From a virus: DNA of 64,000 bases. Below are positions 56,821-58,830 of the stretch, piece by piece. Made by a program: the position numbers and the translations under genes. Within the stretch, counting starts at the first letter, position 1, and every line of letters starts with the position of its first letter. The stretch covers positions 1 through 64,000 of the IMG/VR virus record IMGVR_UViG_3300050119_000049. One strand, given 5' to 3'. Below the pieces are notes generated by a model. The model was not told the DNA's origin. It ran no database searches and was given only the letters and a program-made list of their open reading frames with translations.

Positions 56821-58212
56821 CTACGCCGCTTCTTGCTCGTATTCTTGGATGTAATCGATGATCGCTTCGCTCCAGCCGTCGATCGACACCCAAGGACCGT
56901 ATGCGATGCCGTTCTTTGCACCGGCGACATTGATCACGTAGCCAGCGCCTTGCGGATGTGGCGGACGATCGGCGCTCTGCTCATCGGTCACGACGATGAT
57001 TCGCGTGCACTCAGGAAATACTGAGTAGACGTGCTTCACCGCCGCTCCCAGCAACGTGTGATGAGGCTGACGAACAGCATTCAATGCGGCATTAATTGCG
57101 AAGCCTCGACGCGGTGCAATTTCATCGCAGACCGTCGAGAACGTGAATACTCGACATCGAGAGCTGATTTCGCGCAGCATCATTGCCAAAGCCGCAGCCG
57201 CATCGAATCGAGTGATTTCACTCTTAGCTGACACTGGACTGTTCATTGACATCGAGTGATCGACCAACAGTGCCGTACGACCTTCGAGTCTCGGCTGTTC
57301 ACCGAGACAGCGAAACATCGCACTTTCGAGAAACGGCTCGAATTGCGGGCCATACTTCGCAGCCGACAGAAATCGAAACGGCAAGATGCGATCGGTCTTC
57401 ATCGTCTCGATGCCGCGCTTGATCAAGTCAGTCGATACGCCAGCTTGAGTCATGTTGCGTAAATTGCGCAAGAGAGCCATGCCGCCCAACTTGTTTTCAG
57501 TCAACAGTCGAGTGAACGTTTCTTTCTTATCAGCGCCCGCCGACAATTGAGTTTCCCAAGTGTCTGGGATCACCATCGTTTGATTCGCGATACGATCAAA
57601 CAGCGACGGCGCATGACGCAATACTTGACCCCGCTTGTAACCTGGTTTATCGATAGCATCGATCTTCCAAGCTGGCGGGGCTTCACCGTTCGTGTTGAAT
57701 TTCGGTCGAGCATGAACCAGGAACAGCACGTCACGTACTGATATGCCCTCACCGTCGTGCTTCGCCAAGCTGTACTCGTTGAATTTCTTGATGGCTCGCG
57801 CCAACCCAATCTTCAACTGAGTCGCGAGGGGTGCGTTCGGCTGATCCTTCCAGTACAGGGACAGCAGCTCGCCCAACTCATCCGGCCGCTGAATGATCCG
57901 ATGAATCAAATCACCCATCTTGCGCCCTTGAGGACGACGCAGCAGCTCACGCACGATGAACAACGGCACATGTCGCAGCTTGAACTTTTCGCGTGCGTCG
58001 ATCGCACATTGAGCGGCGTCTTCGAACGATACTTGAGCGACTAGCGAGGCAATACGCTTTGAGCTGTCTTCGCCGCTTTCGTAAAATTGCTTTTCGAACA
58101 ACATGCACGACATCACGGCACGACGTAATTCTTTCGTTGCACTGACGCTCGGCGATGGCGCACCTTCGTGAGTACGAAGTTTGCTTTGAGTCTTCACATT
58201 CGTCTTCATCAT
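56821..58212 (-). CDS. Ro60/TROVE-domain protein with C-terminal vWA (Rsr-like Ro sixty-related protein)
   Basis: The C-terminal vWA parallels human Ro60: [10 protein letters not shown] (MIDAS DxSxS) ~ [33 protein letters not shown] ~ [31 protein letters not shown] ~ FIVFTDNET. Helical N-terminal about 330 aa. Strong SD AAGGAGGAT before MMK. Confidence 0.6.
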   Translation of the reverse strand: [463 protein letters not shown]

Positions 58213-58261
58213 ATCCTCCTTTATAAAACGGAGGCTTGACGGGGGAATAATCGATGACGGT

Positions 58262-58830
58262 GACAACGCTGCTCTACCAGGCTGAGCTACGTCTCGATTT
58301 TGGCTGAGACGGTTGGATTTGAACCAACGACCAACGCCTTAAAAGGGAAGTAACCGTTATCTACACCACCCACAAAATCAAGCCGGAACAATCGATGACA
58401 GAATAGCAGATTCGAACTGCCAGCTCGACTATTGCTAGTCAAGTTTCATCCGGCGAAGTAGCTGTCACCTTTCACCAAGCACATCAACCACACACACAAA
58501 ATCTAGTCGGAACCATCAACAGCGGCGTATGCCTTTCGGCGGTTCGCGGGATCGGAATCGAACCGACGTCTGTCAACGAATTGACATGTTCTACCATTGA
58601 ACTACACCTGAAGTATCCGCTATTTGCACCAGACACAGAAACTTTCCTGGAACAATCGACGACGGTATAGTTTCATCTAAAGAAGTAACCGACGCCATAC
58701 ACCAAGGACAAAATCGAGCCGGAACAATTGACAAGAGTTTTGGCTTTCGCCATTCATGATAGCTGAAGTAACTCTCATCTATTACCAGGCACATGTATAT
58801 TAAACATCGAACTCGAACAGAAGTCGATAT
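58262..58830 (-). ncRNA. Array of about 5 degenerate tRNA-like (Y-RNA-like / YrlA-like) repeat units directly upstream of the Rsr-like gene
   Basis: No ORF. Minus-strand T-arm-like GTTGG-TTCAAAT-CCAAC (58311-58332), GGCAG-TTCGAAT-CTGCT (58408-58425), TCGG-TTCGATT-CCGA (58548-58566). D-arm-like TAGCTCAGCCTGGTAGAGC and TAGTTCAATGGTAGAAC. Anticodon arm replaced by tetraloop hairpins (TTGACTA-GCAA-TAGTCGA, TGTCAA-TTCG-TTGACA). Shared motifs GTTACTTC and CGATTGTTCCGGCTTGATTTTGTG recur every 70-150 nt. Confidence 0.45.

Follow-up and report, generated by a model that had tools for sequence, protein, structure and literature searches.

A probable phage Ro60 ribonucleoprotein module in which five tandem Y RNA-like units precede rsr

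The 64,000-nucleotide stretch of viral DNA analysed here (the window) probably encodes a phage Ro60 (Rsr) ribonucleoprotein module, consisting of a Ro60 gene and five Y RNA genes that lie ahead of it on the same strand. Ro60-Y RNA particles are conserved from bacteria to humans, in whom Ro60 is an autoantigen of lupus and Sjogren's syndrome, and to our knowledge the function of the bacterial and phage particles is still poorly understood. The carrier, a medium-sized tailed phage whose genome probably contains 2-aminoadenine, would possess a complete Ro60 module that includes five distinct Y RNAs. The features are listed below, with scores from R1, a covariance model whose training set was 33 units taken from other phage contigs and included no window sequence.

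56821..58212, minus strand: rsr, encoding a Ro60/TROVE-vWA protein of 463 aa from the first ATG (462 aa from the alternative second ATG at 58209)
58215..58234, minus strand: rsr Shine-Dalgarno AAGGAGG (58221..58215), with GGAGG paired to CCUCC (58234..58230) in MFE folds
58239..58373, minus strand: U5, a YrlA-type circularly permuted tRNA mimic (R1 103.4 bits, E 1.1e-22, full model)
58380..58482, minus strand: U4, with a GGAUGAAAC motif, a GCAA-capped hairpin (58440..58427) and a T-arm (58421..58405) (R1 31.8 bits, E 1.1e-5)
58504..58636, minus strand: U3, with a tRNA-like module in normal order (R1 33.3 bits, E 5e-6)
58644..58709, minus strand: U2, the shortest unit, with the 16-nt loop UUUAGAUGAAACUAUA (R1 37.5 bits, E 4.8e-7)
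58716..58792, minus strand: U1, a short unit with an apical GGCGAAAGCC hairpin at 58752..58741 (R1 33.3 bits, E 4.9e-6, model 1-131)
58797..58802, minus strand: a weak -10-like TAATAT, read by eye and tentative, 6-7 nt ahead of the U1 start

Is the rsr product a Ro60 protein or a generic vWA protein? The initial annotation favoured the former, and the 463-aa minus-strand frame with the protein strings that it quoted is present at 58212..56821. The Pfam TROVE domain (PF05731) matches at 42.4 bits against a cut-off of 23, which disposes of the proviso that a lack of any TROVE match would leave only a generic vWA protein; the match is restricted to residues 214-285, and VWA_2 and vWA_Ro60 match more weakly, just under their cut-offs. 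PHROG 850, 'RNA-binding protein', covers the product end to end (residues 6-460, 3.5e-35). The family profile of the product matches the Ro60 of Thermus phage phiLo (9KOP/9L5Y) with an E-value of 2.3e-37 over profile positions 8-434 of 438, and it also reaches human and Xenopus Ro60. The C-terminal vWA domain contains a complete MIDAS (DxSxS...T...D), formed by D318-H-S320-M-S322, T386 and D410; D318, S320, S322, T386 and D410 do not vary among 29 homologues, in which more than 100 further columns are invariant too. In the profile alignment this MIDAS falls on the motif region of phiLo Ro60, whose Ca2+ ligands are D322, S324, T391 and D416 (PMC12135203). An AlphaFold (AF2) model of the product (pLDDT 80.2, pTM 0.73) was matched by Foldseek to 9KOP (E 8e-18, full-length TM 0.68), 2NVO (4e-10, 0.62) and 1YVP (1e-9, 0.60), the next matches being lone vWA domains at a TM of about 0.2. 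The predicted fold resembles phage, Deinococcus, Xenopus and human Ro60, and as modelled the protein consists of a helical-repeat domain and a vWA domain in the overall Ro60 arrangement, so that the Rsr-like pairing of a helical part with a vWA MIDAS is borne out by the complete MIDAS and the full-length structural matches. The rsr product is a genuine member of the Ro60/Rsr family rather than a generic vWA protein.

Between the rsr ATG and the stop codon of the upstream gene is a gap of 619 nt (58213..58831) in which there are no ORFs other than mechanical ones. What had been described as roughly 560 nt of ORF-free DNA with about five diverged repeats is an array of exactly five tandem Y RNA-like units, at 58792..58239 on the minus strand. 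All five are on the rsr strand and 27-580 nt ahead of the start codon of the gene, well inside the placement by which YrlA RNAs are recognised (within ~4 kb of rsr, same strand). Common to the five are the conserved motifs UGGUG..., GUUACUUC and a 3'-side GAUUGUUCC; on the minus strand, the GTTACTTC-type 5' motifs are found at 58772, 58689, 58617, 58462 and 58354, and the C/TGATTGTTCC-type 3' motifs at 58730, 58658, 58518, 58394 and 58253. Each of the other RNA elements quoted initially was also located on this strand, as T-arms (58567..58551, 58421..58405 and 58328..58312), D-arms (GCTCAGCCTGGTAGAGC at 58287..58271 and a second one at 58602..58588) and GNRA- or UUCG-capped hairpins (58752..58741, 58586..58571, 58540..58531 and 58440..58427). 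In the whole 64 kb, R1 matches only these five units (E 1e-22 to 1e-5), each match spanning the whole model, and finds nothing else, the next match having E = 1. The regex-plus-pairing scanner from which the R1 training units came returns the same five and two weak matches elsewhere, with 1.45 expected per shuffled window. A hairpin after the rsr stop codon was considered as a sixth unit and rejected, because R1 gives no match there.

The five units share one scaffold, composed of a terminal helix of 3-5 bp, a bulged U, an invariant GG/CC pair, an internal loop, an 8-bp helix and GUUACUUC. The same two covarying stems close every unit, and the apical module differs from unit to unit. Among 146 distinct units from 73 sources, 95.4% of the scaffold cells are paired, and the covariation score of 0.853 compares with 0.208 for shuffles, none of 500 reaching it, and with 0.08-0.16 for slid controls. 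The covariation test in relatives that was suggested initially comes out positive for both scaffold helices, and the covariation extends to pairs that the scanner did not use for selection (columns 1/58, 2/57 and 14/44). Part of the motif conservation is built in, since the scanner regex forced several of the 'invariant' columns. RNAalifold, applied to 33 related units, independently recovered both scaffold stems together with T-arm, D-arm and closed acceptor hairpin; compensatory changes are seen at 26 of 31 pairs. The internal loop is conserved as YG(A/U)AG on its 5' side and CG(C/A)UUGUU on its 3' side; base pairing across it has no strong covariation (mutual information at most 0.11), a mild C9-A49 association being the only one seen.

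The scaffold can be aligned over its full length to the part of Rfam YrlA that binds Ro60: model positions 1-114 align to a related unit, in which GGUGUA, UUACUUC and CCUGUUCC stand opposite the YrlA ggCgaA, aaCUAc and cUuGucGcc. The published 5' motif is GNCGAAN0-1G (PMC4201824). The window units read GGUAAUAG, GGUGUAUG, GGUGCAAAU, GGUGAAAG and GGUGUAG, all five with U (GGUG or GGUA) in place of the published C, and judged from these letters the candidate Ro60-binding motif would be a variant, GGUG(A/U)AG, rather than GNCGAA. Of the 146 units, 69 have C at this GGYG position, which with A next reads GGCGAAG. A C-to-U change in the CGAA motif of phiLo costs about threefold in affinity (PMC12135203). 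The Rfam YrlA model (RF02553) has a gathering score of 69 bits; the best unit of the window, U5, scores 41.1 bits (E 8.3e-7, model 23-86, at 58336..58266), related units score 19-34 bits, and at the gathering score there are no matches in 20 viral and 20 bacterial loci. The earlier YrlA-like reading of the array is therefore sustained by the shared scaffold and by the match of U5 to the YrlA tRNA-like core, and is qualified by the sub-gathering scores and the variant motif. In their paired ends, bulged and internal-loop stem and variable apical module, the upstream units have Y RNA architecture.

The apical modules, which range from 7 to 182 nt across related units, are where the five differ. 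(Related loci are given below by their L numbers.) U1 on its own folds to a closed stem and has analogues with the same GAAA-capped hairpin module in L081, L043 and L048. U2 represents the commonest class among short units and has a near-identical analogue at L081 2649-2714. In U3, a D-arm (58602..58588), a UUCG-capped helix (58586..58571), a T-arm (58567..58551) and a GCCGAAAGGC hairpin (58540..58531) follow each other, and this normal-order tRNA-like module is found in 3 of 163 units (U3, L001 2069 and L053 2869). U4 belongs to a T-arm-only class of 18 of the 163, with an analogue at L081 2722-2823. U5 has a hairpin (58346..58337), a T-arm (58328..58312), a closed acceptor-like hairpin (58310..58291) and a D-arm (58287..58271), and the order of T-arm, closed hairpin and D-arm is that of the solved YrlA structure (bioRxiv 10.1101/312249); within the window this permuted module, which an anticodon-stem-like helix encloses, is confined to U5, U1-U4 being without it. 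None of the scanned tRNA elements occurs in two of the five window units (U1 and U2) or in 106 of the 163 units overall. The assertion that the units have no anticodon arm holds only in part: U3 has an anticodon-stem-like helix with a UUCG cap, and in U5 tRNA models place a small hairpin (CCUUUUAAGG), in a weak alignment, at the anticodon arm.

Could the region instead be a decayed tRNA cluster, a row of pseudo-tRNAs beside a vWA gene with no present function? ARAGORN with relaxed thresholds gives pseudo-tRNAs in the array, all with odd loops; U3 scores 33.9 bits on the Rfam tRNA model (gathering score 29, 58611..58543); and the units plausibly descend from tRNA dimers (bioRxiv 10.1101/312249). 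However, in the tRNA alignment U3 has a 4-nt UUCG loop for an anticodon loop and three acceptor mismatches (4 of 7 pairs), and ARAGORN at default settings, bearing on the initial concern that ordinary intact tRNAs might be present, calls none in the array, its only call in the window being a tRNA-Gln at 60391..60319. By the cloverleaf criterion (acceptor stem of 7 bp, anticodon loop of 7 nt), the array units are not tRNAs. Decay is also at odds with the retention of the scaffold in U1 and U2, which have no tRNA elements, with the occurrence of the same units in bacteria, with motifs and rsr linkage that hold at protein identities down to ~45%, and with the compensatory changes that keep both scaffold helices in the 146 units from divergent phages. 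The covariation data already contradict this reading, which we consider extremely improbable.

A second reading accepts a function for the tRNA-like units and makes them decoys or sponges for host enzymes or toxins directed at tRNA, largely independent of Ro60, whose part would be limited to stabilising the units. T-arm or D-arm elements of the tRNA elbow persist in three of the five units, and this Ro60 subfamily often lies within phage tRNA clusters on the same strand (25 tRNAs in L045, 23 in L049); in L053 a near-intact tRNA-Met(CAU) is found inside the Y scaffold. The window units are nevertheless unfit to mimic the substrates of anticodon nucleases or acceptor-directed toxins, because they have no anticodon loop and no sound acceptor stem. 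The many units without scanned tRNA elements, in the window and overall, also argue against decoys, and every unit keeps the putative Ro60-binding scaffold in strict linkage to rsr. A primary role as decoys is very unlikely, and a Ro60-Y RNA module accounts for the array better.

A single-protein search of viral contigs with the rsr product found no relatives, and these were found instead by an alignment-based search of viral contigs. DNA similarity to deposited phages is confined to ~185 bp at 71% inside rsr, with no annotated close relative of the locus. The same arrays, of up to eight units, lie upstream of this Ro60 subfamily in Caulobacter phage CcrColossus (8 units), in Xanthomonas phages (5 units in Olaya) and in many Acidobacteriota. 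In the viral loci, 167 units share the strand of rsr and 12 are opposite to it, 141 being within 1 kb upstream and 15 at most 1 kb downstream of rsr; in the bacterial genomes, all 201 matches are upstream of rsr and on its strand. Genes or tRNAs separate the units from rsr in some loci, and in L057 the units are 0.1-2.7 kb downstream.

This placement bears on the proposal that the array acts chiefly in cis, as a leader of the rsr mRNA whose scaffolds would be Ro60 sites for autoregulation of translation or mRNA stability rather than free small RNAs. U5 ends ~17 nt before the rsr Shine-Dalgarno, there is no terminator between array and rsr, and the Shine-Dalgarno hairpin is retained in the closest relatives, with the anti-Shine-Dalgarno AAGCCUC kept in L001, L004, L005, L007, L010 and L013. 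A family-wide hairpin sequestering the ribosome-binding site was nonetheless rejected: the Shine-Dalgarno is paired in 0.59 of positions against 0.66 in shuffled controls, and the hairpin holds only in the closest subclade. Units on the downstream side of rsr, or with genes or tRNAs between them and rsr, do not fit a leader, and autoregulation does not explain apical modules that are both diverse and conserved. Furthermore, the Y RNAs of M. smegmatis are cut from a precursor and accumulate bound to Rsr (PMC4201824). A mainly leader-like role is unlikely, although a leader role and a small-RNA role are not mutually exclusive and can coexist. As for transcription of the Ro60-Y RNA module, a promoter and terminator scan around the array gave nothing convincing and did not report TAATAT, for which the sole -35-like hexamer, TCGACT (58827..58822), is 19 nt away, a poor spacing; in contrast, TTGACA-17-TATCAT ends 8 nt before the first unit of L028. 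The array may be read from its own promoter or by read-through from purZ.

How might such a module work? By analogy with published Ro60 systems, the array would be transcribed with rsr or just ahead of it, host RNases would process it at the short U-rich spacers to individual small RNAs, and each RNA would use the shared scaffold to dock on the outside of the Ro60 ring. The modules that vary (the permuted tRNA mimic, the tRNA-like fold in normal order, the T-arm on its own and the two short loops rich in A) could then be viewed as adaptors linking Ro60 to different partners in the host. The likeliest of these would be the 3'-to-5' exonuclease PNPase, for which RYPER complexes set a precedent in Deinococcus, Salmonella and Thermus phage phiLo, and enzymes that recognise the tRNA elbow. 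The phage would probably benefit by steering host RNA decay and quality control, or by blunting an RNA-based defence, during infection. Among phage Ro60-like proteins, a functional result exists for Bas63 gp130 alone, which counters the Ppl defence system; its authors propose that Ppl degrades DNA (PMC11482910), and the role is not obviously related to PNPase.

It is a further step to regard the array as a diversified adaptor set, in which one Ro60 ring and five Y RNAs reach several host machines, U3 has a new topology and the GUUACUUC subfamily is a major branch of Y RNAs; that all of this holds jointly is rather unlikely. On this view, the U3 class would be a natural-order tRNA grafted by its acceptor end onto a Ro60-binding scaffold, a topology not described before. 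The near-intact tRNA-Met(CAU) of L053, in a U3-like position, raises the prospect that during infection Ro60 scaffolds chaperone phage tRNAs, hide them or meter them, or serve as tRNA decoys. The GUUACUUC-type subfamily, if confirmed, would be linked to ~8,000 or more Ro60 homologues and has been missed by Rfam at its gathering score. The covariance model and explicit motifs detect these RNAs where the Rfam threshold fails.

For this window the outcome is an annotation and not a new kind of system. The array had been called notable for a phage, which overstates the case, as phage Ro60 genes with adjacent Y RNAs have been published (PMC4201824; phiLo, PMC12135203), and arrays of five to eight units are already present, unremarked, in deposited phage genomes such as those of CcrColossus and Olaya. 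Multi-unit arrays are the rule in a very large Ro60 subfamily, both in cultured phages such as CcrColossus and the Xanthomonas and Xylella phages related to Olaya and in Acidobacteriota, where they have gone unannotated or been mis-annotated as tRNA, and tRNA calls beside a phage rsr may be halves of Y RNAs. Host-phage pairs of Caulobacter and Xanthomonas would be tractable for studying the function of phage Ro60 particles.

Among known systems, the YrlA/YrlB RNAs and Rsr of Salmonella Typhimurium and M. smegmatis resemble the window in that the RNAs adjoin rsr on the same strand, their 5' and 3' ends pair into a scaffold with a GNCGAA-like 5' strand (PMC4201824; RF02553; 6CU1), and a long permuted-tRNA-mimic RNA corresponds to U5 and shorter hairpin RNAs to U1 and U2. 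In M. smegmatis, YrlA and YrlB are upstream of rsr and come from one precursor (PMC4201824), and the YrlA tRNA-like domain is an L-shaped mimic of tRNA (bioRxiv 10.1101/312249). Unlike these, the window has five units and not two, a GGUG(A/U)AG 5' motif, an extra GUUACUUC and (A)AUGA segment between scaffold and module, tRNA-like parts in normal order in U3, a T-arm only in U4, and Rfam scores below gathering. Thermus phage phiLo encodes a Ro60 about as large as that of the window, and Y-like RNAs directly precede the gene (NAR 2025, PMC12135203); this Ro60 (9KOP, 9L5Y) is the solved structure closest to the window protein by profile and fold, at ~23-24% identity in the structural alignment. 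It binds the upstream Yrl1 and Yrl2 at their CGAA stem-bulge and in vitro recruits host PNPase into ternary complexes (PMC12135203). The phiLo RNAs, however, number two and were described as simple stem-bulge-stem structures with CGAA and no tRNA-like module, compared with five units in the window.

CcrColossus gp139 (TROVE-like) and the proteins of the Xanthomonas/Xylella phages in the Olaya and Usme group belong to the same subfamily as the window protein, with ~44% identity over the full length, and as in the window a tandem Y-like array lies directly upstream on the same strand. CcrColossus, a 280-kb jumbo phage, and Olaya, of 44 kb, have unrelated backbones whose DNA similarity to the window is limited to ~185 bp of rsr; in their records the arrays are unannotated and one CcrColossus unit is labelled tRNA-Gln. 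Deinococcus radiodurans Rsr likewise combines a Ro60 ring with several Y RNAs (Yrn1, Yrn2) encoded upstream of rsr. In the RYPER complex of this bacterium a Y RNA tethers Ro60 to PNPase, and Yrn1 has a T-arm-like element. Unlike the window units, the Deinococcus Y RNAs have the metazoan-type bulged helix on both strands and are chromosomal, stress-induced and non-viral. Metazoan Ro60 is also a ring of HEAT repeats with a vWA domain, and is ~75 residues longer than the window protein, with ~14-16% identity to it in the structural alignment. Its Y RNAs have paired termini and a variable protein-binding loop like the units described here, whereas they are made from separate RNA polymerase III genes without tRNA-like modules, and the conserved bulged helix that reads UGGUCCGA in animals has its counterpart in the UGGUG(A/U)AG of the window.

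The rsr product is a real Ro60/Rsr protein, as the initial annotation had proposed. A generic vWA protein would lack a TROVE match; here the Pfam TROVE match, limited to residues 214-285, clears its cut-off of 23 bits with 42.4, and VWA_2 and vWA_Ro60 match slightly below theirs. PHROG 850 ('RNA-binding protein') matches the protein end to end (3.5e-35), and a word-indexed protein search returned 7,980 of 8,000 scored candidates at E <= 0.001, the best being 435-465 aa proteins of 60-77% identity, for which the JGI product name is often '60 kDa SS-A/Ro ribonucleoprotein'. A profile of 29 homologues, in which the MIDAS residues D318, S320, S322, T386 and D410 are invariant, aligns through 8-434 of its 438 positions with the crystallised Thermus phage phiLo Ro60 (9KOP/9L5Y, E 2.3e-37) and extends to human (9NEN) and Xenopus (1YVP) Ro60. 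The AlphaFold model (pLDDT 80.2, pTM 0.73) has the Ro60 fold, with full-length matches to 9KOP, Deinococcus Rsr 2NVO, and Xenopus and human Ro60 (TM 0.60-0.68); all remaining structural matches are isolated vWA domains.

Between rsr and the end of the upstream gene (58832) lies a gap of 619 nt, the ORFs of which are mechanical only. The gap holds five units, U1 to U5, each with its own apical module:

58832-59896, minus: short (354 aa) PurZ-like adenylosuccinate-synthetase homologue, directly upstream of the array
58792..58716, minus: U1, module of 27 nt with a GGCGAAAGCC hairpin
58709..58644, minus: U2, module an A-rich loop of 16 nt
58636..58504, minus: U3, module of D-arm, UUCG-capped 6-bp helix and T-arm, then a GCCGAAAGGC hairpin
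58482..58380, minus: U4, module of GGAUGAAAC, a hairpin with a GCAA cap, and a T-arm
58373..58239, minus: U5, module of small hairpin, T-arm, closed 5-bp hairpin, GU and D-arm
58221..58215, minus: Shine-Dalgarno AAGGAGG, preceding the rsr ORF
58212 to 56821, minus: rsr ORF, 463 aa
56739-56819, minus: compound hairpin immediately 3' of the rsr stop codon

All sequence strings quoted in the initial annotation were found where it had placed them. Folded singly, each unit closes at its ends, and alignment of the five gives one layout: a 3-5 bp terminal helix, unlike in sequence in every unit and with pairing always kept; a bulged U; a GG/CC pair invariant in the five; an internal loop (5' UG(N)NA(N) vs 3' GAUUGUU); an 8-bp helix, different in sequence between units and paired throughout; the motif G(U/A/C)UACUUC; and the variable module. 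The elements common to all units are referred to here as the scaffold.

The scaffold is supported by comparison with relatives. An alignment-based scan of IMG/VR gave 317 relatives of the rsr product, from which 80 loci were kept, and a scanner combining a regular expression with base pairing counted 167 units in these loci on the strand of rsr vs 12 on the opposite one, with 141 of the 167 within 1 kb upstream of rsr. Units number 0 to 5 per viral locus, the window being at the top of the range. When 146 distinct units were aligned with modules masked, pairing in the two scaffold helices was 95.4% and their covariation score 0.853, compared with 0.208 for shuffled controls (0/500 reaching the observed value) and 0.08-0.16 for slid ones. 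The scanner's regular expression fixes several motif columns, so that part of the invariance seen in them comes from the selection itself; scaffold base pairs outside that selection covary too. RNAalifold on 33 long units independently gives the two scaffold helices together with T-arm, D-arm and a closed acceptor-like hairpin of 7 bp, with compensatory changes in 26 of 31 pairs. A covariance model (R1) trained on those 33 units, which include no window sequence, recovers from both strands of the 64 kb exactly the five window units, bearing out the earlier count of about five: U5 at 103.4 bits (E 1e-22), and the other four at 31.8-37.5 bits (E 5e-7 to 1e-5), spanning the whole model and skipping the module. 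The GG/CC pair gains support from a unit of viral locus L083 (2746-2826), where UGCUG...UUGUUGC replaces the expected UGGUG...UUGUUCC, a compensatory GC/GC change at an otherwise invariant pair.

This covariation contradicts the view that the units are decayed tRNA genes. Nor are they ordinary tRNAs: default ARAGORN makes no call in the array, and the sole tRNA of the whole window is a tRNA-Gln (60391..60319), on the same strand and 1.5 kb upstream. Alternatively, the units could be tRNA decoys working independently of Ro60, a reading that accounts neither for the universal scaffold nor for the majority of units, which are without any tRNA element scanned for. Relaxed ARAGORN calls the 5' half of U5 (58301-58370) 'tRNA-Lys(ttt)', and default ARAGORN likewise calls YrlA-like 5' halves tRNAs in viral loci L035 (4335-4406), L038 (2668-2737), L051 (1978-2044) and L053 (2631-2700), the scaffold 5' strand being read as acceptor plus D region and UUACUUC...UAA as anticodon arm, followed by the T-arm. 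Such halves are a source of false tRNA annotations, and their tRNA-likeness fits the published proposal of a tRNA-dimer origin for YrlA. A normal-order tRNA-like module is rare, found in U3, viral locus L001 and L053. U3 matches the Rfam tRNA model at 33.9 bits, with a 4-nt loop at the anticodon-loop position and a poor acceptor stem. In L053 (2869-2983) the scaffold encloses a near-intact tRNA-Met(CAU) at 2887-2960, whose acceptor stem begins in the conserved UACUUC motif; it reaches 53 bits with Rfam tRNA, is called by default ARAGORN, and may represent the ancestral state of the U3-type module.

The YrlA-like architecture claimed initially holds for U5, whose elements follow the circularly permuted tRNA arrangement seen in YrlA and whose core matches the Rfam YrlA model, although at 41.1 bits (E 8e-7) it falls under the gathering score of 69. 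One related unit aligns with that model end to end (positions 1-114), with YrlA segments ggCgaA, aaCUAc and cUuGucGcc opposite its GGUGUA, UUACUUC and CCUGUUCC. Judged from these alignments, the scaffold is homologous to the YrlA/YrlB Ro60-binding module and represents a divergent subfamily excluded by the Rfam threshold. The GGYG position is C in 69 of the 146 related units, giving GGCGAAG where A follows, which fits the proposed Rsr contact motif GNCGAAN0-1G (PMC4201824), whereas all five window units have U.

The arrays are widespread. The window's nearest relatives carry three- or four-unit arrays whose modules match in part: in L081 (77% identity) U1, U2, U4 and U5 have analogues and U3 does not, an analogue of U3 being present in L001 (63%), and the three units of L083 (67%) are all short. 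Homologues of the rsr product (identity up to 44%) are encoded in 94 deposited phage records. In Caulobacter phage CcrColossus (NC_019406; locus L164, 1263-2454), R1 detects a tandem run of eight units ahead of the TROVE gene, one of which (1670-1832) contains the annotated tRNA-Gln D866_gt024 (1673-1740), and in Xanthomonas phage Olaya (MW802488; locus L165, 1309-1918) it detects five, in a stretch without annotation that precedes a 'hypothetical protein'. Both are cultured phages, and the arrays are unannotated in their deposited records. At least 583 bacterial loci, chromosomal and mostly in Acidobacteriota, encode this Ro60 subfamily. In 80 of them (mostly Acidobacteriota/Terriglobia) R1 gives 201 matches, every one of them upstream of rsr and on its strand, and as many as eight units fall within 1.5 kb of rsr (e.g., L114); no unit in 20 bacterial loci tested reaches the Rfam YrlA gathering score. 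The subfamily often lies within phage tRNA clusters; in viral loci L014, L026, L040, L045 and L049, rsr and its units sit inside same-strand clusters of 10 to 25 tRNAs within about 3 kb either side.

The rsr Shine-Dalgarno, which is better spaced from a second in-frame ATG at 58209 than from the first, pairs, within 58215-58234 (minus), with a conserved AAGCCUC segment, as it does in viral loci L001, L004, L005, L007, L010 and L013. Such pairing in the window and its closest relatives suggests translational control of rsr; family-wide, it is not commoner than in shuffled controls. A cis-regulatory leader of rsr is possible as an additional role of the array, but a pure leader would leave unaccounted for both the module diversity and the units downstream of rsr in other loci. 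The hairpin beyond rsr has a 12-bp outer stem (GCCCGCUCACUC/GAGUGAGCGGGC) around two small hairpins (-46.6 kcal/mol, 106-nt stretch folded); it has no U tract, and was rejected as a classical terminator, and the Y RNA covariance model gives no match there. The PurZ-like protein matches Pfam PF00709 (2e-39) and PHROG 1211 ('2-aminooxy adenylosuccinate synthetase', PurZ), and because of this PurZ-type match the gene suggests that the phage swaps adenine for 2-aminoadenine (Z genome). L081 likewise has an adenylosuccinate-synthetase/PurZ-like gene near rsr. Elsewhere, a 1,171-aa protein (19014-22529, plus) joins a phage portal domain (residues 47-401) to a C-terminal ADP-ribosyltransferase exoenzyme domain (979-1142), possibly an ejected effector or toxin in fusion with the portal, and an 829-aa family A DNA polymerase (1787-4276, minus) has, within one polypeptide, both a 3'-5' exonuclease domain and, at its N-terminus, a domain of the uracil-DNA-glycosylase superfamily.

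How might a Ro60 gene with a Y RNA array operate? Observed here are the identity of the protein, a covarying scaffold homologous to a known Ro60-binding module, diverse modules, and strict linkage and co-orientation with rsr. The array would be co-transcribed with rsr, or transcription would begin just upstream of the array; short U-rich spacers could be processing sites between units, every RNA would dock on Ro60, and the modules would serve as adaptors, with PNPase and tRNA-elbow-recognising enzymes the most plausible host proteins at their other end. As to what the phage might gain, remodelled RNA decay or interference with defences that depend on RNA are the ideas most favoured in the literature.

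The initial observation is confirmed and its interpretation as a Ro60 gene and Y RNA array is supported. The multi-copy phage module that had been thought notable is of a kind already published, phages included, because YrlA-like RNAs adjacent to rsr were reported from 254 bacteria and 22 phages, with at least two Y RNAs per species examined, and M. smegmatis YrlA and YrlB, upstream of rsr, are cut from a single precursor (Chen et al. 2014, PMC4201824); phiLo Ro60 binds two upstream Y-like RNAs and forms ternary complexes with host PNPase, in a 2025 study that lists CcrColossus among phages known for Ro60 and Y-like RNAs (PMC12135203); a preprint reports that the Ppl defence system is countered by a Ro60-like protein which phage Bas63 encodes beside tRNA genes (PMC11482910); and the crystal structure of YrlA demonstrated its permuted mimicry of tRNA, a tRNA-dimer origin being proposed with it (bioRxiv 10.1101/312249). 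The locus is an unannotated instance of this known system, and what goes beyond the literature consulted is the size of the arrays and the diversity of their modules, the rare normal-order tRNA-like module, and a large subfamily missed by Rfam at its gathering score.
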